Positions 2,181 to 62,871 are shown, numbered from the stretch's first letter. The stretch: 64,000 nucleotides of DNA from Spirochaetota bacterium (GCA_016931325.1 JAFGFC010000071.1:11379-75378); one strand, 5' to 3'. Numbers and translations: made by a program. Notes: generated by a model not told the origin, from the letters alone.

Positions 2181-5100
2181 CTATTTATGTTTCCGGCGGC
2201 TTCTGGTCTTTCGCTTAATGCGTGTCGGTCTCCTGATCCCCCTCTTCCCGAACACAAAAACACAGTTACGGCCTGATTCCTTGGCCTTGTATAGACTCTC
2301 ATCCGCTCGCTCGACAAACTCCAATCTGTTCTCCCCTTCCCCTAATTGCGCCACACCAATACTCAATGTCACATTTAACTCTTCAACCCTTTTCCCCACC
2401 CGGTAGCTCATCTTCAACCCTTCGGCCTCTTTACATAACTTGCCTGCCAGGTTTTCCGCTCCCTCCAGGTCTGTTTCCGGCATAATTACCACAAATTCAT
2501 CCCCTCCATACCGGGCCGCTATATCGCTTTTCCTTACATTCTCCTGGATCAGATCCGTCACCTCGATCAATACCAGATCTCCTGCCTGATGCCCGTAATC
2601 ATCATTGAACCTTTTAAAATGATCAATGTCGATGATCATGAGGCTCAATGCCTTGCCATACCTTAAGGCCTCATCAACGCTTTTTATCAGATAATTGTCA
2701 AAGAAAATCCGGTTGTAAAGTCCAGTCAGCCCGTCCGTGATCGCCCGCTGGTAAAGCCTTGCGTTCTCTATCGAGACTCCGGCCTGACCTGAGATAAGAT
2801 CAAGAACCATCAAATCCTCCTGGCTGAATAGCCCGGTCACCAGACGATTATCCAGATAGATCACACCCAGCATATTTCCACGCGCCATGATCGGCGCACA
2901 GAGAACGCTTTTTAGCCCGTACTTGACCACTGACGACTGCCCTTTCAGTACCGTGTCTGTACCCGCATCTTCCACAATAACCGGCTTTGTCTCTTTTTCC
3001 ACCTTCTCTATTATGCTCTGGCTGGAGATAAATGCTTCTCCCTTCAGCTGCCCCTTCTCCACATTCCTGACCACCCTGATTTCAAGCTCTTTCTTCTTCC
3101 CCCTCTCATCAGGATATAACAACAGTATGCCCCGCTCCGCTCCCACCAGTTCCATGGTCTTGTCCATGATCTTTTCCAACAGCTCGTCCAGGTTGAGTAT
3201 GGATGACAGATATCGGCTCGTGCCCAATACCGTGGTCATCCTCCGCTCCACCTTGAGCCGGTCCTGCGGGCTGACCTCCTCGGTTGCCTCTTTCTCTTCT
3301 TTGAGTCCCAGGGCCTGAGAGCATTCTTTGATATATTTTTTAGCTCCTATGGTTTTGAAAACAGTTAATGCTGTTTCCCGGTTTTTCATGGCTTCTTCTT
3401 TTTTCCCCATTATATCTAAAAAATTGCTGTATTCGTAATAACTTTTAGCCATTTCATATTGACGATATGTATTTTTTAAATGTTTTATACTTTTTTTAAA
3501 ACAATTTTCCGCTTTTGTCTTCTTCTTAATTAAAGCGTAGTATTTACCACATACTCTCCATGTAACACCGTAATGGGCTGGCCAGGCTTTTGTATGCTTG
3601 TGAGATTCTTTACAAATTTTTTTTATCTGTTTCATGTCTCTTTTTAACAAGATCTTATTTTTTGTCCTGGTATCTTCATTATAATATCTCATGATATAGG
3701 AATCAGCCAAATAAGGATACAGGTATACAATATAATCTTTAATAAAATTATTATTAAGATACAGCTCTTTAGCTCTTTCCAATAATTTTATTGCTTCCTG
3801 ATATTTACCCTCTTCATATTTTAAATATCCGTGTACAACGCTGGAAGAACAATATATAAACCAAACTTTGTTTTTTTTACTGACACTCAAAGCCTCTCTT
3901 CCTACTTTGTTCGCTATATCAAAATTTCCCATTTCTATATTAGCTAAAGATATATTGGCCAGTGCTGAACTTTCACCATATACATCTTTTAATCTTCTAC
4001 TGATTTCCAGGTATTGGGTTAAATAATTAACCCCTTTGGCATAATCAGACATTAATCTGTATAAAAGACCAAAACCCTGTATTATCATCCCTAATTCCCA
4101 CATATCCCCCATTCTTTCAAATTTTTCCTGTGCCAGAGTGAAAACCTCAATAGCTTTTGGATATTCTGCCTTCCAGCTATAGCCATATCCCATAAACTGG
4201 AGTGATTGAGCTAATCCCCATTCATCATTCAGTTCTTTCCTTAAAGCTATAGCTTTTTTATGATATTTTATGGATAATTTAAAAATAGGTATAGCCATTA
4301 ATAACGCAGCATATCCTCCAAAAGATATGCCTAATTCCTTTGATTTTCCTATCCTCGATTCTGATATATTTAACATCCTTAATACATTGCAGATAAATTT
4401 ACTAATATCACTTAAAATATACATCCAATTTAACGGGATATTGATCCAGACTATTTCTTTATCTTCTTCTTTGATATTTTTAATTCCCTTGCGTACAAAA
4501 ATAAATGGGAAAAGATTATGCAAAAGATGTGTAATAATTTCTTTTGTCAAAGAAATTATGATTTCTATTTTCTTTCGCGGAATTTTTTCTCCAATTAATA
4601 ATAATCCATTCGCTAAATTGTCCTCACATTTTTCCCAGTCCCCTTTTTTAAAATAAGCCGTTCCTATTTTCCGGTAAATACGGGCTTTTTCAACAGGTTT
4701 TTTCTTTAAATGCAAAAGTTCCCGACATAGATCTATCGCTTCATCATTCCTGCCAATCGTTAGATATACCGCTGATAAACCCTCTTTGGCTTGAATCCAC
4801 TCTTCTTTACCTTTCTTCCCTTTCTTTTCTAACAAGTCTATCCCTATCTGATAATATCTGATCGCATCTTCATTGGCATAGTTTACTTTCGCCTTTTCAG
4901 CTGCCGGGATGACATATTCCAAAGACTTTCGTTTATCTCCTCCTTCTGTATAATGATGTGCCAGCTCAAAGACCACACTCTCAATGTTTTTCTTATTTAA
5001 TTCTTCGATTGCTTTTGCTATTTTTAAATGAAGAGCCTGTCTTCTCTTCTTGCCGATCTTCTGATAAAAAGCATCCCGGATCTTGTCATGCACAAAGATC

Positions 5101-7103
5101 TTCTTCCCCCGTTCCAGACTTTCCTGGATCAGCTGCATGGATATGGCGTCATCCACTATCCTGACAACATCCTCCTTTGGCATCTCTACCAGAGGATACA
5201 GCAGATCGATCTCAAATTCCCTGCCGATAACAGATGACAGATAAAGTATTTCACTCTGCTTCTGGGTGAGATCCTCGATCCGTTTTAAAATAATATCGAT
5301 CATATTGGCTGATACCGGAATCCTGGCTATCCGTTTCCAGTCCGCATCCCAGTACCCTTCCTTCCATATCAGGCCTTTCTCTTCTACCAGTTCTCTCAAA
5401 ATACTTATGGCAAAAAAGGGATTTCCCCTACTTTTTCTCATCACATACCGGGTCAACTCATGGGCTTTGCTCTCCCGTTCACCCAAAAGTGAAGCCACCA
5501 TCCTGTTCATCCTGTCATAAGTAAATGATTTGATAATAATCTCTTCTAAAGCATAACCTCCTGTTTCAGCCTCATTTTTTACCCTGGTTAAACTGTGCTT
5601 TTCATCCACCTCATTATCACGAAAAGCTCCTATGATCAACAGGTTTGAATTTTTTACCTTCCCGGCGATCTCCTCAAGGAGCCTCAAGGTCCCTTCATCC
5701 GCCCATTGCAGATCATCGATATAGATCAGGCAGGCTGTAGTTTCCCCAACCAGATGACAGAAAAAATTGGATGCCACCATTAAAAATCTCTGGTTCTCAC
5801 GTTCCGGATCAAGTTTGACCAGCTGAGGTACTTCGCCCAATACTTCAGACATGTTCCCATTAAGCCGTATCACGATCTCTCCCAGATCCCCCAGAATATT
5901 TTTTATCCTCTTTATCTCTGTTTCTTTTTCTTTCTTCCCTAACCTTTCAAGATGTTTAATATACCCGTTAATCGTGTCCCGGAAAGGCTGATAGGGTGTC
6001 TTGTTCTCCTGGTCCAGACAACGGCCGCCAATGAAAAGCCCGTTCTCTTCATAACAGTAACTCCTCATCTCCTCCAAAAGACGGCTCTTGCCCACTCCCG
6101 GTTCTCCTCCTATCAAACAGACACTCCCCTGACCATCCCTGGCTTTATTAAAAAGCTTTTGCATCCTGGATACTTCTGCTTCCCTGCCCACAAGCCTGGT
6201 CTGATAACTGATCTTTACCTTCTGGTCCTTCTCCCCTATGATAAAACCCCTTTCCCCTTTCTGGAATCTTTGTACATCATATAAAAGCCCCTTGGCGCTC
6301 TGATACCGAAGCTCCGGTTCCTTGAACAACAGTTTCATCACCATCTCTTCCAGTTCACTCGATATCCCGGTCCGCACCTTGCCCGGCTTGGTCGGCATTA
6401 CAGCCACCTGCTGATGAAGCATCTTGCTGGTCTCTTTGGCCCTGAAAGGCAGTTCCCCGGTCAGCAATTGATAAAAGATAATACCCAGTGAATACAGATC
6501 ACTCCGTTCATCTATTCTTTTATTCACGATCCCCGTGGCTTCAGGCGACATGTATCCGAAGGTCCCGACCACTTCTTCCTCCCCTTTCAAATGACCCAGT
6601 TCCATGATAAAGGCCACGCCAAAATCTAAAAGTTTTGTCACATTTCCTTTGCCCTTTTTCACCAGCATAATATTGCCCGGTTTCAGGTCCCTGTGAAGTA
6701 TCCCCCGGCCATGTACATAATCCAGTGCCTCTGTCAGTTGTTTGATAATATCGATCGTTTCTTTTGTTCCAAAACTTTTCTGCTGCTCCAATTTCTCGGA
6801 CAGGCTCTGTCCGGGAATAGATTCCATGACAATGTAAGGAATATTTTTATATTCTCCGCTGGAATAGATCTTTACGATATTGGTATGGCTTAACTGGCTG
6901 ACCGCTTCGATCTCTCTTTTGAACCGGATCACATCTTCAATATAGGATGAGGTCACTCCCTGTTTGAGGAATTTTATGGCCACATCATGCTTTTTTTTTC
7001 TGTCCCTGGCCCGAAAAACAACACTCATTCCCCCTTCGCCGATCTGTTCAAGTATCTGGTATCTCGTATCAATTGTTGCGTTCTTTTTAAATTTCAGTTC
7101 CAT
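2181..7103 (-). CDS. Multidomain signalling protein: N-terminal Ser/Thr protein kinase, AAA/STAND-like NTPase, multiple TPR repeats, GAF domain, C-terminal GGDEF diguanylate cyclase, then a Lys/Arg-rich tail
   Basis: Kinase motifs GEGGMSVVFRA...AIK and HRDLKPGNIML...DFG. Walker A GGEPGVGKSRLLEE. A long TPR-like helical region. GAF-like ELLEKIMDKTMELVGAERGILLL. GGDEF motif RYGGDEFVVIM with an RKSD (RxxD) I-site 5 residues upstream. The tail reads RRPTRIKRKTRSRRKHK. Confidence 0.8.
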   Translation of the reverse strand: MELKFKKNATIDTRYQILEQIGEGGMSVVFRARDRKKKHDVAIKFLKQGVTSSYIEDVIRFKREIEAVSQLSHTNIVKIYSSGEYKNIPYIVMESIPGQSLSEKLEQQKSFGTKETIDIIKQLTEALDYVHGRGILHRDLKPGNIMLVKKGKGNVTKLLDFGVAFIMELGHLKGEEEVVGTFGYMSPEATGIVNKRIDERSDLYSLGIIFYQLLTGELPFRAKETSKMLHQQVAVMPTKPGKVRTGISSELEEMVMKLLFKEPELRYQSAKGLLYDVQRFQKGERGFIIGEKDQKVKISYQTRLVGREAEVSRMQKLFNKARDGQGSVCLIGGEPGVGKSRLLEEMRSYCYEENGLFIGGRCLDQENKTPYQPFRDTINGYIKHLERLGKKEKETEIKRIKNILGDLGEIVIRLNGNMSEVLGEVPQLVKLDPERENQRFLMVASNFFCHLVGETTACLIYIDDLQWADEGTLRLLEEIAGKVKNSNLLIIGAFRDNEVDEKHSLTRVKNEAETGGYALEEIIIKSFTYDRMNRMVASLLGERESKAHELTRYVMRKSRGNPFFAISILRELVEEKGLIWKEGYWDADWKRIARIPVSANMIDIILKRIEDLTQKQSEILYLSSVIGREFEIDLLYPLVEMPKEDVVRIVDDAISMQLIQESLERGKKIFVHDKIRDAFYQKIGKKRRQALHLKIAKAIEELNKKNIESVVFELAHHYTEGGDKRKSLEYVIPAAEKAKVNYANEDAIRYYQIGIDLLEKKGKKGKEEWIQAKEGLSAVYLTIGRNDEAIDLCRELLHLKKKPVEKARIYRKIGTAYFKKGDWEKCEDNLANGLLLIGEKIPRKKIEIIISLTKEIITHLLHNLFPFIFVRKGIKNIKEEDKEIVWINIPLNWMYILSDISKFICNVLRMLNISESRIGKSKELGISFGGYAALLMAIPIFKLSIKYHKKAIALRKELNDEWGLAQSLQFMGYGYSWKAEYPKAIEVFTLAQEKFERMGDMWELGMIIQGFGLLYRLMSDYAKGVNYLTQYLEISRRLKDVYGESSALANISLANIEMGNFDIANKVGREALSVSKKNKVWFIYCSSSVVHGYLKYEEGKYQEAIKLLERAKELYLNNNFIKDYIVYLYPYLADSYIMRYYNEDTRTKNKILLKRDMKQIKKICKESHKHTKAWPAHYGVTWRVCGKYYALIKKKTKAENCFKKSIKHLKNTYRQYEMAKSYYEYSNFLDIMGKKEEAMKNRETALTVFKTIGAKKYIKECSQALGLKEEKEATEEVSPQDRLKVERRMTTVLGTSRYLSSILNLDELLEKIMDKTMELVGAERGILLLYPDERGKKKELEIRVVRNVEKGQLKGEAFISSQSIIEKVEKETKPVIVEDAGTDTVLKGQSSVVKYGLKSVLCAPIMARGNMLGVIYLDNRLVTGLFSQEDLMVLDLISGQAGVSIENARLYQRAITDGLTGLYNRIFFDNYLIKSVDEALRYGKALSLMIIDIDHFKRFNDDYGHQAGDLVLIEVTDLIQENVRKSDIAARYGGDEFVVIMPETDLEGAENLAGKLCKEAEGLKMSYRVGKRVEELNVTLSIGVAQLGEGENRLEFVERADESLYKAKESGRNCVFVFGKRGIRRPTRIKRKTRSRRKHK

Positions 7104-19902: not shown

Positions 19903-19952
19903 CTAGTTCATAGTTTTAAAAGCCCAGAACTAAGAACGATGAACTATGAACC
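19903..19952 (+). promoter_or_regulatory. Operator-like array in the argG leader: two TAGTTNN heptads, an 8-bp spacer, four tandem NGAACNA heptads
   Basis: tagttca tagtttt aaaagccc agaacta agaacga tgaacta tgaaccg. Left and right halves are reverse complements (tagttca / tgaacta). Confidence 0.45.
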
Positions 19953-19976
19953 GATGTTGTTGATGGAGGAAATATT

Positions 19977-26358: not shown

Positions 26359-28026
26359 TTATTTTTTAACAACAAGCTTGAAAGTAGCCTTTATACTATC
26401 ACCTTCGATAATAACAAGATAAATACCGGCTCCGACTTTCATTCCCTCATCCCCCACCGTTCCATCCCATATCTGGCTGGTATTTTCAACATAGTACTGT
26501 TTATCAAAGGATTTAACCAGATTTCCTGAAAGATTGTAAATATTGATACTGGCCAGTCCACTCTGAGCCAAAAATATCCTGGTTATATCTCCTTTTGAAA
26601 GATCAATGTAATTTGGGTATACACCGGTTTTTAATGAAGAAAAAGCCCAGGGGGGATAATAAACAACATTGGAAGGCAGGGATGTTCCGGCTTTGTTTGT
26701 GGCAATAACCTTATACCAGTATAAATCATTCTCCTTGATACTTTTATCGTGAAAACTTGATACATTGCTGGCACTTGTTCCCAGGGGATAAAAATTTATA
26801 CCATCCGGACTCCGGAAGATCTTGAATCCCCCTTCGTTAATTGTATTATCCTGCCAGTTCAGGTTCACAGAGCCGGATAAAGGAGTAAGAGCAAGTAATG
26901 TCGGGGGATACGGATAAGGCGGCTGAAGATATTTTTCCAGAAAACAATAATTCGTTAAAAAATTGAGTGACTTGTAACCGAGTACATACACGAATCCCTG
27001 ATCATTAACCGCTGTTCCAAAGATATAATGGTCATGCCTGTGATAATCAATGATATTCCCCTGATTATCATATTTCAATGTCAGGCGACTGCCGTTCGTA
27101 TGACCTGTCACATAAAGAAAATTCCAATTATCCAAGGTGATATAAGTAGCCTCATCATCATGCCCTGAATCAAAATCCTTTGACCATATTACATTGCCGT
27201 TCGTTGAATATTTGATCGTATACCAGTCCTTGTTTATTCCATTATATCTATACCCTGTAACGTAAACATAACCGGAATTATCCAAACCTATATCAAAAGC
27301 CTCATCATGTCCTCCGCTGTCATACTGCTGGGTCCATATCGTATTGCCAGATGGATCATATTTGATGGTAAAATAATCCTTGTGTATCCCTGTATCTTTA
27401 ATACCTGTCACATAAATATTGCCGCTGTTATCCACAGCGACAGCACGGGATTCTTCATCTTTACTGATACCCTGATCAAAGGTCTGCGTCCAGATGGTGT
27501 TTCCATTCGTATGATATTTCAGTGTACAAAAATGTCGGTTCAATACAGCCGCAGGTCTGGTATAACCTGTGACATAAATATAACCAGAATTATGATAGGC
27601 TATATCCCAGGCTTCATCATGATTCCCTGCCGTATATCCTCTGATCCAGCCAATATTCCATAAAGGGTCATACTTAATGGTACGCATATTAAAGAGTATT
27701 CCATTCAGGATAAAACCGGCAATATATACATTACTGTGACTGTCAACAACGATCCCATGACAGAAATCGGTATCCCCGCTGTCATATTCCTCCATATGTT
27801 CAATGGTACTGTCAGGATTGATCTTCAGGGTCATAAAATTCGGATTGGAATTATTTTTATCCCCTACAATATAAACATTCCCGGATCGATCAAGCGTAAG
27901 GTCACGACCCCTGGCCGAATCAACGCCATTATAAGACTGTGTCCATACCAGGGCCCATTTACCTTGCAGGGGAACAGAGAAAAGGATCTGAAAAAAAAGG
28001 ATAAGAAAATAAAAATATTTCATCAT
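26359..28026 (-). CDS. Secreted beta-propeller (SBBP repeat) protein with FN3 domain and T9SS-type C-terminal sorting domain
   Basis: Signal peptide. Repeated YxxSGNxIWTQxYD units. FN3-like PPTLLALTPLSGSVNLNWQD...YWYKVIATNKAGTS. C-terminal ...GIYLVIIEGDSIKATFKLVVKK is typical of Por/T9SS CTDs. Confidence 0.65.
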   Translation of the reverse strand: MMKYFYFLILFFQILFSVPLQGKWALVWTQSYNGVDSARGRDLTLDRSGNVYIVGDKNNSNPNFMTLKINPDSTIEHMEEYDSGDTDFCHGIVVDSHSNVYIAGFILNGILFNMRTIKYDPLWNIGWIRGYTAGNHDEAWDIAYHNSGYIYVTGYTRPAAVLNRHFCTLKYHTNGNTIWTQTFDQGISKDEESRAVAVDNSGNIYVTGIKDTGIHKDYFTIKYDPSGNTIWTQQYDSGGHDEAFDIGLDNSGYVYVTGYRYNGINKDWYTIKYSTNGNVIWSKDFDSGHDDEATYITLDNWNFLYVTGHTNGSRLTLKYDNQGNIIDYHRHDHYIFGTAVNDQGFVYVLGYKSLNFLTNYCFLEKYLQPPYPYPPTLLALTPLSGSVNLNWQDNTINEGGFKIFRSPDGINFYPLGTSASNVSSFHDKSIKENDLYWYKVIATNKAGTSLPSNVVYYPPWAFSSLKTGVYPNYIDLSKGDITRIFLAQSGLASINIYNLSGNLVKSFDKQYYVENTSQIWDGTVGDEGMKVGAGIYLVIIEGDSIKATFKLVVKK

Positions 28027-34942: not shown

Positions 34943-37372
34943 ATGAAAACAATAAAGGAAAAACTGGATCAGATCTTTACATTGCCCAATATAGAGAAAG
35001 TGACACTGGTTTCCCTTTCCGTCTATTCCCTGTTCCTGGGCCTCTTATTGGGGTTCATGGTGGTGTCTCTACAGAACCTGACCGGTATCAAGGAGTTGGA
35101 GGACTACAGGCCGGCTACGGTGACAAAGATCTATGATAATGAAGGCCGACTGATCTCCGAATACTTTGAGGAACAGCGTGAAATCGTTTCGTTAAAAGAA
35201 ATACCAGAGCTCTTAACCAAAGCTTTAGTGGCTGTGGAAGATCAGAAATTCTATCAACATAAAGGTATCCACTTCCAGGGTATTGTCCGTGCTTTTGTGG
35301 TCAATATGCTTGCCGGATATATAAAGGAAGGAGGGAGCACCATAACTCAGCAGTTGTCCAAGATCCTTTTTACCACACGAAAAAAAAGTATCTTTCGCAA
35401 GTTGAAAGAAGCCTGGCTGGCTTTCCAGATCGAAAAATTATATACAAAAGAAGAGATCATCGAATTCTATCTGAATCAGGTCTATTTCGGACACGGGGCT
35501 TATGGTGTTGAAGCCGCTTCCCGTTTCTATTTTAATAAGCGTGTATCCGATCTGAATGTGGCAGAATGCGCCCTTCTGGCAGCCCTTCCTGCGGCTCCAA
35601 ATAAATATTCTCCTATCAAGGATCCTGAAACTTCGCAGCAACGTCATAAAAAAGTATTGAACCATATGGTGGAAAGCGGCATTATAGATGAAGAACAGGC
35701 TCAATCGGACTATTATGATTTCTGGATCAATTATCAGGGTAAGATCGTAGCCCCTAATTCGTCTTTCTGGAAGATCAGGGTTGATAATGCTCCTCATTTT
35801 ACCGAGCATGTTCGCCGGATAATGGAAAAACGCTTTGGTGAAAAGATCCTTTATACCGAAGGAATGCGTATCTATACGACACTGAATCTTGATATGCAGA
35901 AAGCCGCGCAGGAAACTTTATGGAAACGCCTCCAGGCCCACAATAACAGATATTATACCCGTATCGAGCAGGTCAATAAAAATTTTGACAAGAATTTTGC
36001 AGACTTGATCTCCCTGATGGGTTTGATCCTTGACAACAAAAAGATCGCTAATTTAAGTACCCATAAAGAATTGAATCGGTTTAATTATTATTTTTCAAAA
36101 GAATCGCTGGAACAATTTGATCTGGCTTCACTTATCTTCGGGCTGGATGATATTCATCGGTTGTTCCGGATCTATCGAACAACGAGATCACAGAAAGTGG
36201 TTCAGGATAAAGTCGAAGGGGCGATCATATCCATTGAACCCTATTCAGGTTATATTAAAGCCATGGTTGGAGGAAGCGAATTCACTCCTGAAAATCAGTA
36301 TAACCGGGCTGTACAGTCTTACAGACAGCCTGGTTCAGCTTTTAAACCTTTTGTTTATATGGCAGCACTTGATACCGGTCGGTTTACCCCTGCTACGACT
36401 TTTACTGACTCACCTGTGGTTTATTTTGACGGGGAAGGCAAAGAATGGATCCCTAACAATTATACAGGCCAGTACTATGGACTGGTAACATTGAGAAAAG
36501 CATTGCAAAAGTCCATTAACATTATCTCCGTTATGCTGGCTGACCAGGTGGAAATCGATAATGTAAGAGAGCTGGCCGCCAAAATGCTGCATATTTATGA
36601 TTATCATGAGATGAAGAAAAATCTGCCTGATGATCTTTCCCTGGCTCTGGGCACCGCAACCGTAACTCCTTTGCAAATGGCCAATGCCTTTGCTATCATA
36701 GCCAATAAAGGGCGTGACGTTATCCCTATTTCCATAAAATACATCAAGGACAGAAACAATAATGTTCTTGTTGATATGCAAAAAGAACTAGCCCGAAAAC
36801 CCCGCAGGCAGATCATCACACCTCAGGTGGCTTTTCTTATAACCGATATGATGAAAAGTGTGCTTAAACCGGGAGGGACCGCCTGGGGAGCCGCTATTGA
36901 AACTGATTTCTGGTTGCCAGCAGCCGGAAAGACCGGCACGACCGACAACTGGAGGGATGCCTGGTTTGCGGGATTTACAGAAAAACTGGCCTCGGTGGTT
37001 TGGGTAGGATTTGATAATTATAGCCGTTCCCTTGGCCTGGGAGAAGAAGGCGGCAAGGTAGCGGCCCCTATCTGGTGCGAATATATGAAAAAAGCCATGA
37101 GGAATTATTACCTGAGTGATTTTGAAGTCCCCCCGGGGATCACCAAAGTGGATATTTGTTTAAGATCAGGCAAATTGGTCTCAAATGATTGCAAAGAACG
37201 CGGTGTTGAATATTTTATTGAAGGGAGCGAACCCTCTCAGGAATGCACCAGTTGTAAAGAAGGATATAAACAGTTTGAATTTGATGAAGAAAAAGTGGAA
37301 AAGATCCTTGACGAAAAGAGAAAAAAACTGAAAGATAAAATATTTAAAGATAAATTCAGGCTCAAGCTTTGA
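34943..37372 (+). CDS. mrcA: Class A penicillin-binding protein 1A (transglycosylase plus transpeptidase)
   Basis: N-terminal TM. GT51 motifs (EDQKFYQHKGI, GGSTITQQL). Transpeptidase SxxK (GSAFKPF), SxN, KTGTT. Confidence 0.85.
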   Translation: MKTIKEKLDQIFTLPNIEKVTLVSLSVYSLFLGLLLGFMVVSLQNLTGIKELEDYRPATVTKIYDNEGRLISEYFEEQREIVSLKEIPELLTKALVAVEDQKFYQHKGIHFQGIVRAFVVNMLAGYIKEGGSTITQQLSKILFTTRKKSIFRKLKEAWLAFQIEKLYTKEEIIEFYLNQVYFGHGAYGVEAASRFYFNKRVSDLNVAECALLAALPAAPNKYSPIKDPETSQQRHKKVLNHMVESGIIDEEQAQSDYYDFWINYQGKIVAPNSSFWKIRVDNAPHFTEHVRRIMEKRFGEKILYTEGMRIYTTLNLDMQKAAQETLWKRLQAHNNRYYTRIEQVNKNFDKNFADLISLMGLILDNKKIANLSTHKELNRFNYYFSKESLEQFDLASLIFGLDDIHRLFRIYRTTRSQKVVQDKVEGAIISIEPYSGYIKAMVGGSEFTPENQYNRAVQSYRQPGSAFKPFVYMAALDTGRFTPATTFTDSPVVYFDGEGKEWIPNNYTGQYYGLVTLRKALQKSINIISVMLADQVEIDNVRELAAKMLHIYDYHEMKKNLPDDLSLALGTATVTPLQMANAFAIIANKGRDVIPISIKYIKDRNNNVLVDMQKELARKPRRQIITPQVAFLITDMMKSVLKPGGTAWGAAIETDFWLPAAGKTGTTDNWRDAWFAGFTEKLASVVWVGFDNYSRSLGLGEEGGKVAAPIWCEYMKKAMRNYYLSDFEVPPGITKVDICLRSGKLVSNDCKERGVEYFIEGSEPSQECTSCKEGYKQFEFDEEKVEKILDEKRKKLKDKIFKDKFRLKL

Positions 37373-37522
37373 CGGATCGTTACTTGAATGTATTTTAAAT
37401 GAATAGTTAAATAAACAATCCGTCAGTTCGAAGTTCTAGGTTCGAAGTTCAAATCTTCTGCCTTGCAATTCGACACTCTGGAATTTCTAAGACCCCTAGA
37501 AATTGCCAAGCAATTCCAAGGG
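37371..37522 (+). repeat. Structured intergenic element, copy 3: long hairpin, four GTTCNAN heptads, nested GGAATT/AATTCC hairpins
   Basis: gacggatcgtt...aacaatccgtc is an 11-bp stem with a 32-nt loop. Heptads agttcga agttcta ggttcga agttcaa (37425-37452). Outer stem ccttgcaatt/aattccaagg encloses ggaatttcta/tagaaattgcc. Confidence 0.5.
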
Positions 37523-37545
37523 ATGCGTCAGGATCAATAAAACTT

Positions 37546-38061
37546 ATGAAATACAGTGAAAATACATTAGAAGAAAAAGCCATAGAACAGGCCCTGGGTC
37601 TCATAGCCACAGCTATCAAGACATCGCCTAAATCAAGAGGATTGAATGCTTTAAAAGTCATCGCTCTTACGGATAAGGAAAAGAACAAACTGGCCAAAAA
37701 AATGAGCACCATTAACAAGCATCCTTTTCCAAGAGATTCTAAAAATATCGAGAAGGCTGATGCCATTATCCTGATCGGGATGAAAACCATGCATATGGGA
37801 CTGAATTGCGGCATGTGCGGTTATAAGGACTGTGCTGACAGTCAGGGGAAAAAAGGTCATTGCATTTTTAATACGATCGATCTGGGAATTGCTCTGGGTT
37901 CAGCTGTATCTACCATTTCTGATCTAAAGATCGATTCCCGTATCATGTATTCAGCCGGTATGACTGCCAGGGATATGGGCCTGTTTCCAAAAGAATATCG
38001 TATTGTAATGGGTATCCCCCTTTCTATTTCGCAGAAGAATATTTTTTTTGACAGAAAATAA
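37546..38061 (+). CDS. DUF2148-like ferredoxin-domain protein (COG4739-type)
   Basis: GLNCGMCGYKDC Cys cluster. About 170 aa. Family assignment is from memory. Confidence 0.45.
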   Translation: MKYSENTLEEKAIEQALGLIATAIKTSPKSRGLNALKVIALTDKEKNKLAKKMSTINKHPFPRDSKNIEKADAIILIGMKTMHMGLNCGMCGYKDCADSQGKKGHCIFNTIDLGIALGSAVSTISDLKIDSRIMYSAGMTARDMGLFPKEYRIVMGIPLSISQKNIFFDRK

Positions 38062-38066
38062 TAAAT

Positions 38067-38157
38067 TAGTTTATAGTTCTTGGTTTATTTTCATCAAACA
38101 ACGTTACAAACTGTTAATTAAAATTTCCCTAAACTAAGAACTACGAACGACGAACTA
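38067..38157 (+). promoter_or_regulatory. Second operator-like heptad array: two TAGTTNN heptads, then, 49 nt downstream, tandem NGAACNA heptads just upstream of the 38172 gene
   Basis: tagttta tagttct (38067-38080), then aaaacta agaacta cgaacga cgaacta (38130-38157). Same motif family as at argG. Confidence 0.4.
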
Positions 38158-38171
38158 AAAACCAAGTTATT

Positions 38172-39123: not shown

Positions 39124-39140
39124 ATGATTTGATAAAAAAA

Positions 39141-39168
39141 GGCAGCCCTTTGGGCTGCCTTTTTTTAT
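39141..39168. terminator. Bidirectional intrinsic terminator after dcd
   Basis: aaaaaaa ggcagccc ttt gggctgcc tttttttat: a GC-rich 8-bp stem with a U-tract. Confidence 0.75.
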
Positions 39169-40088: not shown

Positions 40089-40108
40089 ATCTTCCCTCCT
40101 CTTTGTAA

Positions 40109-40126
40109 CCGAGCCTTTAGGCTCGG
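40109..40126. repeat. REP-like palindrome CCGAGCC-TTTA-GGCTCGG, copy 1
   Basis: Perfect 7-bp GC-rich stem. The same element recurs at 46259, 61090 and, degenerate, at 51414. Confidence 0.5.
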
Positions 40127-40141
40127 AAAATATATATCCTT

Positions 40142-41224
40142 TTATTCATCTATGAACTTTTTTTTGAGATCCTCATCTTCAGACAATTCCTCAACGATCT
40201 TTTTGATCTCCTGCTCTCTGGATTTATCCATAACCAGAAGAGCATTTTTACTTTTCACTATAATAAGATTATTAACGCCCAGGGTAACCACCAGGTCACC
40301 GTCACTTACAATAATAGAATTTTTTGTATCCTGTCCTTTCCATAATGATTTTATAATATTTCGATCAGGATCAACACCTGTCACTCTTTCCAAAGCGGTC
40401 CAGGAACCAACATCATCCCAGGTGAATCTGGATTTCAAACACAGGACATTATCCGCATGTTCCATGACCCCATAGTCAATGGATATCCTTGGCAGAGCGT
40501 GGAAAACGTCATGAACAGCCCTGTCTTCTTCGTCCGTGTCCATAACATCCTGAATCTGCATTAATCCCTCAAAAAGTTCCTTCATATGCTTTTCGATCGC
40601 TTCCATAATGGAAGGTATAGTCCATATGAACATACCGCTGTTCCATACAAAATTTCCTTTTTCATTATACATTTTAGCGGTTGCATAATCAGGTTTCTCT
40701 TTAAAGCTTTTAACCTCATAAGCAGGGGTATCATAAGTATCATTGATGATCTCTCCCAGTTCTATATGACCATACCCTGTCGAGATCCTTGTCGGCTGTA
40801 TCCCAAAGGTGATAAGACACCCTGTCTCTTTGGCGATCCTGGAGGCGTTGAAAAGGTCCTTTTGGAAGAGATCCTTCTCTTTTATTGTATGATCAGCCGG
40901 GAGAACAGCCACCACAGACCCGGGAGATCTTTTGTTCACCATGGTAACAGCGAAACCTATGGCTGCGGCCGTATCTTTTGGCATGGGTTCAATGATAAAA
41001 TTTTCATCGGGAAAATCTTTTATAATCGCTTTTATGGGAGGGACAAGATCTTTTCTTGTGGAGATAAAAATATCTTCTGTTTTTACCAGCCCTTCCAGCC
41101 TTTCGATGGTCTCTTCCAGCATGGTCTTTGAACTGACAATAGGTAAAAGCTGTTTTGGCTTTGTAAGACGGCTAAAAGGCCAGAATCTCTCCCCCTTTCC
41201 GCCGGCCAGAATGATAATCTTCAT
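40142..41224 (-). CDS. Mannose-1-phosphate guanylyltransferase-like sugar nucleotidyltransferase
   Basis: MKIIILAGGKGERFWPFSRLTKPKQLL is the G-x-G-T-R-hmm NTP-transferase N-terminus. 360 aa with no cupin domain. Confidence 0.7.
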   Translation of the reverse strand: MKIIILAGGKGERFWPFSRLTKPKQLLPIVSSKTMLEETIERLEGLVKTEDIFISTRKDLVPPIKAIIKDFPDENFIIEPMPKDTAAAIGFAVTMVNKRSPGSVVAVLPADHTIKEKDLFQKDLFNASRIAKETGCLITFGIQPTRISTGYGHIELGEIINDTYDTPAYEVKSFKEKPDYATAKMYNEKGNFVWNSGMFIWTIPSIMEAIEKHMKELFEGLMQIQDVMDTDEEDRAVHDVFHALPRISIDYGVMEHADNVLCLKSRFTWDDVGSWTALERVTGVDPDRNIIKSLWKGQDTKNSIIVSDGDLVVTLGVNNLIIVKSKNALLVMDKSREQEIKKIVEELSEDEDLKKKFIDE

Positions 41225-46175: not shown

Positions 46176-46258
46176 TTGACGTCCTCATGTATAATGAATT
46201 GTATAATTTAACAACAAAAAAGAGAATGTCAAGCCTATTTTTCGTTCATGGTTCATAG

Positions 46259-46306
46259 CCGAGCCTTCAGGCTCGGGGATTATAATTTCCGAACCTTAAG
46301 GTTCGG
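46259..46306. repeat. Two adjacent short palindromes in the divergent promoter region: CCGAGCC-TTCA-GGCTCGG (REP-like copy 2) and CCGAACC-TTAA-GGTTCGG
   Basis: Both are perfect 7-bp stems with 4-nt loops, 12 nt apart. Confidence 0.5.
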
Positions 46307-58610: not shown

Positions 58611-58661
58611 ATTACGAATTAAATAGCTTTGAGAAAGCAAGTCAACTCTTTTTAGATTCTC

Positions 58662-59058
58662 GTTCGAGGTTCGACGTGCGACGTCAACGCACAGGAAGTG
58701 CGTTGGGTCAAATCGGCCTGGAAGGCTGAGATTTGACCACGAAGTTCGATGAACAGGATGGTCATCGGATCGGCTCAGTTCCCCTGCAATTCATGGAATT
58801 GCGGGGATTAAATCCCGGAAATAGCCCTGCCATTTCAAGGGACGTAGCATTTCCAGGGTAAAGTCCTTGGAATTGCTACGCAATTCCTAAGGAGTCTTAA
58901 TCCTCGGAATTTCTCGGAGAAATTCCAGAGGGATGAATTGCAGGGGAGAGGATTCGACACTCCTACATCCTGCCCCTAGAAATTTTTTATCGAAAAATTT
59001 CAGGGGTATAGTCCCTGGAATTGTACTTTGGACAATTCCTAGGGATAGGTCGTCGAAC
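58662..59058 (+). repeat. Structured intergenic element, copy 1: GTTCGAN heptads, conserved hairpin module, then five tandem GGAATT/AATTCC-type hairpins, bounded by inverted CGTTCGACG-like ends
   Basis: Left end gttcgag gttcgac gtgcgac. Hairpins caacgcac-aggaa-gtgcgttg and cccctgcaatt-catgg-aattgcgggg. Further hairpins at 58868-58892, 58904-58924, 58975-59006 and 59015-59046. Right end ggtcgtcgaacg. The module is homologous to 62672..62818. Confidence 0.55.
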
Positions 59059-59115
59059 GTATTATTGCTTGACTTTGTTAAAGATTATACTATCTTGAAA
59101 AATCTTTAAATAGAG

Positions 59116-60984: not shown

Positions 60985-61073
60985 GGAGAGGTGCTGGAGT
61001 GGACGATCAGGGCTGCCTGCTAAGCAGTTGTAGGGGTTAAACTCTACCGAGGGTTCGAATCCCTCCCTCTCCG
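60985..61073 (+). tRNA. tRNA-Ser (anticodon GCU), class II
   Basis: Acceptor GGAGAGG/CCTCTCC. Anticodon loop CTGCTAA. Long variable arm GTAG...CTAC. T-loop GGTTCGAATCC. Confidence 0.85.
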
Positions 61074-61089
61074 CATATAATGACTGTAG

Positions 61090-61107
61090 CCGAGCCTTCA
61101 GGCTCGG
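61090..61107. repeat. REP-like palindrome CCGAGCC-TTCA-GGCTCGG, copy 3
   Basis: Identical to the copy at 46259..46276, including the flanking TAG...AAA context. Confidence 0.5.
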
Positions 61108-61124
61108 AAAGTAAGGTAAATATT

Positions 61125-61467: not shown

Positions 61468-62667
61468 ATGATCTACAAGTTACAATCTTTAGCCGGTCTT
61501 GTGCTTATTCTGGGACTGGCTTTCCTTCTCTCTACTAATAAAAAATCAATAAAACTGCGTGTTGTTGTATGGGGATTCGCTCTTCAGCTGATCCTGGCCT
61601 TAATTATTCTCAGAACCGATATCGGTTTTTTAATATTTGAGGGGGCCAAAAAAGCGGTGGGTGCCGTTATTAATTACAGCGACAAAGGGGCTGCTTTTGT
61701 TTTTGGAAATCTTGTCTATGATCAGGCTATAGGAGCGGTGATCGCTTTCAGGGTGCTTCCTATCATTATTTTTGTCTCGGCCCTGATGGGTATCCTTTCT
61801 TTTTTTGGTATTATCCAGTTCTTTGTAAAATTGATGGCCCGGCTTATGCAGAGAACCATGAAAATATCCGGAGCGGAATCATTAGGGGCCGCTATGCTTA
61901 TCTTCATGGGCATTGAAAGCAGCACAGGTCTGAAAGAGTATATTAGAAAAATGACCAGATCCGAAATATTTGTTTATATGAGCGCCTTCATGAGCACGAT
62001 CGCCACAAGTGTTATGGCTACTTATGTCAGCTTTGGGGCTCAGGCCGGTCATTTACTGGCAGCCTCTATTATGAGCGCTCCGGCAGCCGTAGCCATCGCC
62101 AAGATCATGATACCTGAAACAGAAAAACCGGACACTCTGGGAAGCAGTAAATTAAAATTAGAAACCAAGCCGTCTAACATCATTGAATCAATGGCTGATG
62201 GCGCTTCAACCGGTGCACACCTGGCTATTCAGATCGGGGCCATGCTTTTAGCGTTTATGGGTATCATCTATCTGATCAATGGCCTGTTAAATTATGCGGG
62301 ATTATCCATGGATAAGATCTTCAGCTATATTTTCTATCCTTTTGCTCTGGCTTTAGGTGTACCCGTAAAAGACGCGTCAGTCGTAGCCTCATTGTTAGGT
62401 ACAAAGACCGTATTTAATGAATTTTTGGCCTATATGAAGCTTCAGCCCCTGATCCAGTCACACGCCATTTCCGCCCGATCTATTGTTATCTCAACTTATG
62501 CCTTATGTGGTTTTGCCAATTTTGGAAGTATTGCGATTCTCATAGGGGGGCTGGCCGGTATCGCCCCGGAGAAAAAAAACATGATTGCTTCCCTGGGGAT
62601 CAAATCTCTGATTGCCGGTACTCTGGCTTCTTTCATGACAGCTATCATTGCGGGGTGGTTGATTTAA
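61468..62667 (+). CDS. nupC: Concentrative nucleoside transporter, NupC family; start trimmed to the ATG just after the tRNA
   Basis: MIYKLQSLAGLVLILGLAFLLS...LRVVVWGFALQLILALIIL is a typical CNT N-terminus. Polytopic, about 400 aa. Confidence 0.75.
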   Translation: MIYKLQSLAGLVLILGLAFLLSTNKKSIKLRVVVWGFALQLILALIILRTDIGFLIFEGAKKAVGAVINYSDKGAAFVFGNLVYDQAIGAVIAFRVLPIIIFVSALMGILSFFGIIQFFVKLMARLMQRTMKISGAESLGAAMLIFMGIESSTGLKEYIRKMTRSEIFVYMSAFMSTIATSVMATYVSFGAQAGHLLAASIMSAPAAVAIAKIMIPETEKPDTLGSSKLKLETKPSNIIESMADGASTGAHLAIQIGAMLLAFMGIIYLINGLLNYAGLSMDKIFSYIFYPFALALGVPVKDASVVASLLGTKTVFNEFLAYMKLQPLIQSHAISARSIVISTYALCGFANFGSIAILIGGLAGIAPEKKNMIASLGIKSLIAGTLASFMTAIIAGWLI

Positions 62668-62671
62668 TATG

Positions 62672-62818
62672 GTTCGACGCGCGACGTTCGAGGTTCGAAG
62701 TTCGACACACAGGAAGTGTGTCGGGTCGAATCCCTCCCCTGCAATTTGGAAAATTGCGGGGATCAAATCCCGGAAATGCTTCGCATTTCACAGGACATGG
62801 ATGGTTGGGATTCGACCA
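62672..62818 (+). repeat. Structured intergenic element, copy 2 (compact): five GTTCGAN heptads followed by a multi-stem module
   Basis: Heptads gttcgac gcgcgac gttcgag gttcgaa gttcgac. Hairpin cgacacac-aggaa-gtgtgtcg. Outer stem gggtcgaatccc/gggattcgacc encloses cccctgcaatt-tggaa-aattgcgggg and gaaatgc-ttc-gcatttc. Confidence 0.55.
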
Positions 62819-62871
62819 CTTTGTTTAATGATATAAGCAATTAACTATCTTTTATCTTATGGATAATAAAA

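Follow-up and report, generated by a model that had tools for sequence, protein, structure and literature searches.

A four-copy intergenic repeat of heptamer arrays and hairpin modules in a Spirochaetota genome, probably of the REP/BIME/REPIN kind

We analyzed a 64,000-nt stretch of DNA (the window; 39.7% G+C) from the metagenome-assembled genome (MAG) of an uncultivated Spirochaetota bacterium (GCA_016931325.1, JAFGFC010000071.1:11379-75378). The window carries four homologous copies of one non-coding, hairpin-rich element, all of them in spacers between genes. R1 lies between nupC and a lipoprotein gene, R2L and R2R (together R2) share the divergent spacer between dinB and a SurA-like gene, and R3 lies between the genes for PBP1A and a DUF2148 protein. 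The flanking genes, which encode a nucleoside transporter, DinB, a SurA-like protein, PBP1A and a DUF2148 protein, are functionally unrelated. Every copy opens with heptamers in tandem, (GTTCGAN)n, after which comes a core of hairpin modules, and the G+C content of the elements is 44-52% vs 39.7% for the window. The initial annotation of this DNA, made from the sequence alone, had noticed only two copies and placed the end of the second at 58830. There are four, R2R and R3 being the additions, and the dinB/SurA-like spacer is structured from 58661 to ~59060, its right half being an inverted copy.

The copies are collinear in a MAFFT alignment (A2) of R1, R2L, the reverse complement of R2R, and R3. 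Their common order is the (GTTCGAN)n heptamers, an optional hairpin with a GGA loop (hairpin B), a module that we call M1 (GTCGAATCC..TC(C/T)CCTGCAATT(C)), a GGAATT(G/T)C segment, GGATTAA(A/G), and hairpin E at the end. When pairwise local alignment scores were compared with 300 shuffles, five of the six pairs scored above all shuffles (z 6-26), and the remaining pair, R2L and R3, did not (score 25, shuffle maximum 28, z 4.2). The similarity between the R1 and R2 spacers is far above chance, with a local score of 78 vs 15.7 +/- 2.4 for shuffles (z = 26), a 26-nt core gives a BLAST E of 5e-7, and R1 62725-62746 is the reverse complement of R2 58936-58958. R1 and R2 had been said to share a single module of more than 100 bp. 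The sharing is real, but it consists of three collinear blocks (a heptamer run of ~22 nt, 31 nt at 84% identity and 43 nt at 86%), and a 65-nt insert separates the shared blocks in R2. In R3 the heptamer array lies at 37425-37450 (period 7 in Tandem Repeats Finder, TRF) and the core that follows it is the reverse complement of R2 58865-58957 apart from one 19-nt indel. M1 recurs both in R2R (reverse complement of 58936-58958) and in R3 (37447-37475).

Logan assemblies of the same sample (run SRR13394437) served as an independent check of the sequence. Two contigs (L153 and L151) reproduce R3 base for base and a third (L147) confirms R2 from 58919 onward, and since these independent contigs are identical to the window over R3 and the right part of R2, an assembly artefact is excluded. 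The ends of Logan contigs fall within the elements (window positions 58919, 37486 and 37509), which is consistent with repeated or polymorphic sequence, although suggestive only.

The nearest relative (GCA_964605455.1, the best match among 5.8 billion proteins) shares 77% identity in NupC, 62% in the SurA-like protein and 71% in the DUF2148 protein, and it keeps the order tRNA-Ser, tRNA-Ser, small membrane protein, tRNA-Arg, nupC, lipoprotein. Its nupC and lipoprotein genes overlap (ATGA), where the window has a spacer of 204 nt, and its PBP1A-DUF2148 gap is 12 nt, where the window has 173 nt. The orthologous junctions of the relative thus lack R1 and R3. Judged from these junctions, R1 and R3 are additions in the lineage of the MAG, and loss down to zero in the relative is much less likely. 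No GTTCNNN arrays were found in ~31 kb of the relative's DNA. For R2 we found no orthologous junction, as the adjacency of dinB and surA is not kept in the relatives that were reached.

We noted in the relative's DNA a gene fragment (MRRARFTFKGAFHHVMNRG...) that ends two contigs (L004 3-101 and L150 2-85, both on the minus strand; JGI 3300013103) and is multi-copy in the relative. By eye it resembles the HUH region of Y1 transposases of the IS200/RAYT type, but Pfam gave no significant match for its 28-33 residues.

Copies elsewhere were sought by exact-pattern scans of 185,579 GTDB representative genomes, JGI metagenomes (two scans) and IMG/VR (three scans). The junction between hairpins D and E had two matches in the representative genomes, both chance, and M1 had no match in the JGI metagenomes. 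A pattern for the heptamer plus GGA-hairpin unit with free stem positions gave 18 chance matches in JGI, apparently coding and mostly in G+C-rich other organisms. The three IMG/VR scans returned no real copy of the hairpin modules, and BLAST of R1 against plasmids returned no match. On the evidence of these collections, the hairpin core appears to be confined to this lineage.

The stems, loops and compensated changes quoted in the initial annotation are all present in the sequence, with hairpin B of R1 lying one nucleotide to the right of the position first given (62703-62723, not 62702-62722). The outer stem of this compact copy (GGTCGAATCCC/GGGATTCGACC) is a perfect 11 bp, and the second stem (CCCCTGCAATT/AATTGCGGGG) occurs in R1 and R2L with different loops, TGGAA at 62736-62761 and CATGG at 58781-58806. 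Between hairpin B and its counterpart in R2L (B'), two stem positions differ and both are compensated (G-C to A-T and A-T to G-C). Further copies had been proposed as the place to look for stem breakage; in B'', a third copy of the hairpin, three pairs are compensated relative to B and pairing is otherwise kept except for one A.G mismatch. Over the three copies, 4 of the 8 pairs have changed on both sides with pairing kept. With the three copies aligned, 95.8% of cells are paired, with a single broken cell (the A.G), vs 17-42% when the 3' arm was slid by 1-3 columns as a control, and the covariation score was matched by only 3 of 500 shuffles. The stem varies, but the loops (AGGAA, AGGAA and AGGAT, or AGGAW) and the flanks stay constant. 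When a covariance model of the heptamer plus hairpin B unit was run unfiltered over the whole window, it recovered its three training copies and one degenerate copy inside R2R, and nothing else.

Maintenance of hairpin B thus has even stronger backing than the initial annotation gave it, and the change lies in what it implies. The compensated changes had been read as the signature of selection on secondary structure, but such changes are reported to be common in the hairpins of REPINs (Bertels & Rainey 2011, PMC3116915) and for that reason do not discriminate RNA from mobile DNA. Folding does not single out a strand either. Each strand folds much more stably than its shuffles do (R1, z -4.4/-7.5; R2, z -11.5/-12.1) and neither is consistently better, with -66.8 (+) vs -70.3 (-) kcal/mol for R1 and -189 (+) vs -177 (-) for R2; counts of G.U pairs, used as a second test of strand, have no consistent bias. 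From the four aligned copies RNAalifold retained only hairpin E and a trivial AATT palindrome, with a covariation term of about zero. The homologous GGAATTKC segment has different partners in different copies: in R1 and R2L it serves as the 3' arm of hairpin D, and in R2R and R3 as the 5' arm of another hairpin.

Searches for known RNAs agree with the earlier statement that the element matches no named riboswitch or small RNA family. In a scan of Rfam (4227 families, at gathering and permissive thresholds), only three tRNAs in the window passed the gathering threshold, none of them in an element, and permissive scans of the nupC/lipoprotein and dinB/SurA-like spacers gave only matches with E >= 0.87. 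ARAGORN found no tRNA or tmRNA within the elements. Promoter-like and terminator-like sites are not more frequent than in shuffles, and the sole match to an intrinsic terminator (62802-62818), a weak stem of 7 bp with CTTTGTTT after it, belongs to counts near the shuffle expectation.

Table 1. Positions of the R elements, their modules and related heptamer arrays. Positions are those of the window, except for the last row, which refers to an IMG/VR contig. R2R is listed in minus-strand reading order.
Feature	Position	Strand	Description
R1	62672-62818	+	compact copy, nupC (61468-62667) / PPC-domain lipoprotein gene (62872 onward)
R1 heptamer array	62672-62706	+	GTTCGAC GCGCGAC GTTCGAG GTTCGAA GTTCGAC, 5 units; TRF period 7, 5.0 copies
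R1 hairpin B	62703-62723	+	CGACACAC-AGGAA-GTGTGTCG, 8 bp, pentaloop AGGAA
R1 outer stem, 5' arm	62724-62734	+	GGTCGAATCCC; pairs with 62807-62817; also start of M1 (GTCGAATCC..TCCCCTGCAATT)
R1 hairpin D	62736-62761	+	CCCCTGCAATT-TGGAA-AATTGCGGGG, 10-11 bp, one T.G wobble or bulge
R1 hairpin E	62773-62789	+	GAAATGC-TTC-GCATTTC; sole hairpin common to the four copies
R1 outer stem, 3' arm	62807-62817	+	GGGATTCGACC
R2L	58661-58862	+	left forward copy, dinB / SurA-like divergent spacer
R2L heptamer array	58661-58684	+	CGTTCGA GGTTCGA CGTGCGA; TRF period 7, 3.4 copies
R2L hairpin B'	58685-58705	+	CAACGCAC-AGGAA-GTGCGTTG
R2L hairpin C'	58706-58738	+	GGTCAAATC-GGCC-TGGAA-GGCT-GA-GATTTGACC, loop TGGAA
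R2L hairpin B''	58747-58767	+	CGATGAAC-AGGAT-GGTCATCG, third hairpin B copy
R2L hairpin D'	58780-58807	+	CCCTGCAATTC-ATG-GAATTGCGGGG
R2L hairpin E'	58818-58836	+	GAAATAGC-CCT-GCCATTTC, one mismatch
R2R	58863-59060	-	inverted copy, head-to-head with R2L
R2R heptamers	59049-59060	-	CGTTCGACGACC; short inverted array
R2R extra hairpins (two)	59013-59045, 58973-59006	-	after the heptamers
R2R CAGGATG, then M1	M1: reverse complement of 58936-58958	-	after the extra hairpins
R2R GGAATTTCT hairpin	58906-58926	-	after M1
R2R E-type hairpin	58869-58887	-	GGAATTGC-TAC-GCAATTCC; last in order
R3	37424-37531	+	between PBP1A (34943-37372) and DUF2148 (37546-38061)
Naked array	19927-19956	-	(GTTCNNN)x4 without hairpin core, upstream of + strand ORF starting 19977
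Naked array	38127-38162	-	GTTCGTN-type, ~4 units, ~10-15 nt upstream of DUF498 ORF (38172, + strand)
Arrays of contig L055	280-363, 730-799, 1221-1269, 1740-1823, 2970-3039	sense	IMG/VR contig

The dinB/SurA-like spacer contains the most elaborate arrangement (Table 1). Within R2L, an internal partial tandem duplication of the unit formed by a heptamer and a GGA-loop hairpin yields B'', whose flanks are the same as those of hairpin B in R1. Because R2R is an inverted copy of R2L, the 5' arm of hairpin D' (TCCCCTGCAATTCAT, 58780-58794) pairs at 15 of 15 positions with 58933-58947 in R2R, giving a perfect long-range stem.

The heptamers extend beyond the elements. The motif GTTCNNNGTTCNNNGTTC has 9 overlapping matches in the window, vs 0.16 expected, and all of them are in spacers. 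Arrays of at least three (GTTCNNN) units occur in five spacers; three of these arrays head R1, R2L and R3, and the other two are "naked" and lie 10-25 nt upstream of the ribosome-binding site (RBS) or start of an open reading frame (ORF) on the plus strand. In IMG/VR the pattern GTTCGANGTTCNANGTKCRA matches at least 120 stretches, many of the single matches probably being chance or coding, and among the matches listed 22 stretches carry several arrays. Five phage-like contigs (L055, L073, L019, L012 and L053; 57-62% G+C) have many spacers with GTTC(R)AN heptamers. In L055, five of the six intercistronic spacers are filled from the stop codon to the next RBS with 7-12 sense-oriented units, and in L073 and L019 there are convergent inverted pairs of arrays 15-30 nt apart, sometimes alternating with GCCCC-TTCG-GGGGC hairpins. 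BLAST of an L055 array against cultured phages gave no match, and our literature searches found no published description of GTTCNNN heptamer arrays.

The nearest described systems are the intergenic TAACTGA heptamer arrays of Beggiatoaceae, Cyanobacteria and Bacteroidetes (PMC4679880) and the heptanucleotide arrays of Geobacter metallireducens, which are paired on opposite strands at variable distance (PMC2700814). The arrays in the window resemble both in having 2-6 heptamers with variant units, in being almost exclusively intergenic and in often lying by start or stop codons, and the array pair that brackets R2 (58661-58684 and 59049-59060) is like the paired arrays of Geobacter. They differ in that the unit here is GTTCNNN (GTTCGAN in the R elements) and is fused to a conserved hairpin core.

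Two resemblances to tRNA were also noted. In M1, 13 consecutive bases (GGGTCGAATCCCTCCCC, 62726-62738) are the same as the T-arm/acceptor end of tRNA-Ser(GCT) at 61055-61067 (BLAST E = 0.13), and the heptamer GTTCRAN equals the tRNA T-loop consensus. A tRNA-derived element was rejected, as the 13-nt identity is all there is and neither ARAGORN nor Rfam finds a tRNA-like fold.

On balance we think it probable that the four copies represent one mosaic intergenic repeat, specific to this lineage and of the kind known from repetitive extragenic palindromic (REP) sequences, bacterial interspersed mosaic elements (BIMEs) and REPINs. Its building blocks would be heptamer arrays and small palindromic modules, the latter reshuffled by duplication, deletion and inversion. 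The initial annotation had left three options, a structured non-coding RNA, a cis-regulatory RNA and a REP-like or MITE-like DNA element. The absence of R1 and R3 from the relative's junctions and the presence of modules in both orientations favor the REP-like option and count against the two RNA options. The copies are imperfect palindromes outside genes, richer in G+C than the spacers, and form mosaic clusters in both orientations; the inverted units R2L and R2R make a head-to-head doublet that, as in REPINs, folds as one long hairpin. Compensatory changes in hairpins and lineage-specific presence or absence at gene junctions are further likenesses to REP, BIME and REPIN sequences. There is no sequence similarity to these families, however, and the conserved GTAG-like 5' tetranucleotide of REPs was not found in the flanks, which consist of heptamers; a tandem heptamer array on every copy is a further difference. 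BOX of Streptococcus pneumoniae, Correia/NEMIS and ERIC are modular intergenic repeats that are co-transcribed within operons. The R elements are like BOX and similar repeats in their modularity, variable module number, stable predicted structure, and location between genes or inside operons. Their sequence is unrelated, the order A-B(n)-C and the orientation are fixed in BOX whereas modules are also inverted here, and BOX has no heptamers. In their manner of populating extragenic space, the R elements also resemble the small dispersed repeats of cyanobacteria.

As a repeat of this kind, the element would have been added to tiny or absent gene spacers in the lineage of the MAG. Because their gene pairs are co-directional and, in the relative, overlapping or 12 nt apart, R1 and R3 are probably transcribed as intercistronic RNA inside operons. 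REP hairpins in E. coli operons are said to act as barriers to 3' exonucleases and as uncouplers of translation, and the G+C-rich stem-loops of R1 and R3 would act likewise, as barriers to 3'-5' decay and uncouplers of downstream translation. Candidates for the means of spread are a single-strand transposase of the Y1/RAYT type, or template-switch or fold-back copying at the heptamer arrays.

Several points weigh against the REP-like reading. Copy number comes from the 64-kb window, where n = 4; repeats of the REP type number tens to hundreds per genome. Six-frame translations of the window contain no transposase, RAYT or HUH-type motif, and the exact-pattern scans of GTDB, JGI and IMG/VR gave no real copy of a hairpin module. 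The copies have no clear terminal inverted repeats, and the short direct repeats at the flanks of R1 and R3 carry little weight. Hairpin B keeps its loop and varies its stem; classical REPs do the reverse, and the pattern is more usual for protein-read loops.

The same observations bear on the alternatives. If the multi-stem fold were the selected unit, as in a dedicated cis-regulatory RNA or small RNA family (a leader, attenuator or riboswitch-like element), one would account for the very low folding energies, the compensated changes that occur in hairpin B and, to some extent, in hairpin E, the co-orientation of R1, R2L and R3 with a downstream plus-strand gene, and the promoter-like hexamers immediately upstream of R2L and R3. 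Such an RNA is unlikely in our view. It fits poorly with absence from the relative's orthologous junctions, with the inversion of R2R and the modules in both orientations, and with unrelated flanking genes; moreover, only one small hairpin is common to all copies, consensus-fold covariation is near zero, identical sequence is used for different helices from copy to copy, the minus strand equals the plus strand in folding, promoter and terminator matches do not exceed shuffles, and Rfam has no match. A classical miniature inverted-repeat transposable element (MITE), that is, a cut-down DNA transposon with terminal inverted repeats that is moved by a DDE transposase and leaves target-site duplications, seems no more than a slim prospect. 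The 11-bp perfect inverted repeat brackets the R1 core but leaves out the heptamers and hairpin B, which other copies share; R3 lacks a terminal inverted repeat, the ends of the copies are not conserved, and the window has no transposase. Presence in the MAG and absence in its nearest relative would suit a MITE, as would 6-nt direct repeats, CGTCAG around R3 (37421-37426 and 37526-37531) and TTTAAT around R1 (62663-62668 and 62824-62829). These repeats are short, and they are suggestive at most: they may be target-site duplications or, equally, chance, especially the AT-rich TTTAAT.

Two further possibilities take the constant loops and the arrays as the parts that matter. RNA bound by a CsrA/Rsm-type protein, in which GGA loops on the plus strand of R1 and R2L would titrate or recruit a CsrA-like regulator from operon transcripts or as sponge RNAs, is in our estimate very unlikely. 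The CsrB repeat is reportedly CAGGA(U/C/A)G, and a consensus from SELEX (systematic evolution of ligands by exponential enrichment) has reportedly been described as well. Multiple GGA motifs in hairpin loops, the hallmark of CsrB/Rsm RNAs, are seen in five or six loops of R1 and R2L: AGGAA in B and B', AGGAT in B'', TGGAA in C' and D, and CATGG followed by A in D'. A loop that stays constant while its stem changes is what one would expect if a protein reads the loop, and all three B copies retain CAGGAAG or CAGGATG despite their differing stems; the motif is also found in R2R without a stem. However, the three B hairpins are homologous and so are not independent observations, the GGA of hairpin D is inherited sequence that forms a stem arm in the other subfamily, and two of the four copies (R2R and R3) have no GGA loops. 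GGA outnumbers TCC in R1-R3 (28 vs 15, ~2.8 times the window density), predicted minus-strand loops contain no GGA, and the density in R2 (18 GGA in 408 nt) is similar to that of CsrB, as are the several CAGGA(A/U)G motifs in loops of short hairpins. A weak match to CsrB at 58677-58728 has 8.8 bits and E = 4.4, where the gathering score is 71, but no Csr or Rsm family of Rfam is significant. Compared with CsrB, RsmY and RsmZ (RF00018 and relatives), the elements sit in operon spacers and have no promoter or terminator signal of their own above shuffles, and a motif search found no csrA-like ORF within the window. A broader version, which we rate as rather unlikely, is that the arrays, with or without GGA-loop hairpins, are modules recognized by a protein that would read along single-stranded RNA or DNA seven nucleotides at a time. 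They would then be an undescribed intercistronic signal shared with the phage-like contigs, and the R elements would be hairpin-bearing elaborations of it and not selfish DNA. A ring-shaped HutP-like or TRAP-like protein is a candidate reader of the arrays, and a CsrA-like protein is a candidate for the GGA loops.

Other classes were tried and rejected. These were a riboswitch or attenuator; an intrinsic terminator, as there is no G+C-rich stem-loop with a T-run beyond the weak match at the end of R1; an integron attC site, as the core GTTRRRY is unmatched; and a retron or diversity-generating retroelement (DGR), as there is no reverse transcriptase.

The window contains other repeats and hairpins. 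A second dispersed hairpin family, TGTARCCGAGCC-TTYA-GGCTCGGRRA, is intergenic at 40104-40132, 46254-46282 and 61085-61113, with one copy directly after a tRNA-Ser gene, and the 46254 copy has a compensated variant beside it (~46288-46306), CCGAACC-TTAA-GGTTCGG. A perfect 23-bp inverted repeat with the loop GGAGA (GTGTAGTCTTTTTTAACTTTTCC/GGAAAAGTTAAAAAAGACTACAC, 2065-2115) lies between minus-strand genes at 417-1973 and 2181-7103. A perfect 17-bp hairpin between convergent genes (AAAAAAAGGCAGCCC-TTT-GGGCTGCCTTTTTTT, 39132-39168) looks like a bidirectional intrinsic terminator. At 27099-27620, four direct repeats of ~150 nt with 62-72% identity look like a repeated protein domain in the minus-strand ORF 26359-28026. 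ARAGORN also called a 96-nt tRNA-Arg(tcg) at 40972-41067, inside a 360-aa minus-strand ORF; Rfam did not call it and it is probably a false positive.

If the R elements are indeed a REP-like mosaic repeat, they would be one more lineage-specific family of palindromic intergenic repeats, which is useful for annotation and not surprising. They may serve as a strain-typing marker, and they would caution that compensated stem changes alone do not indicate a functional RNA. Two features go a little beyond the routine. Every copy is seeded by a GTTCNNN array, a motif that we have not found described and that also fills the spacers of phage-like contigs, and a constant CAGGAWG loop sits on the fast-changing stem of hairpin B, which is the usual way in which protein-read RNA loops evolve.

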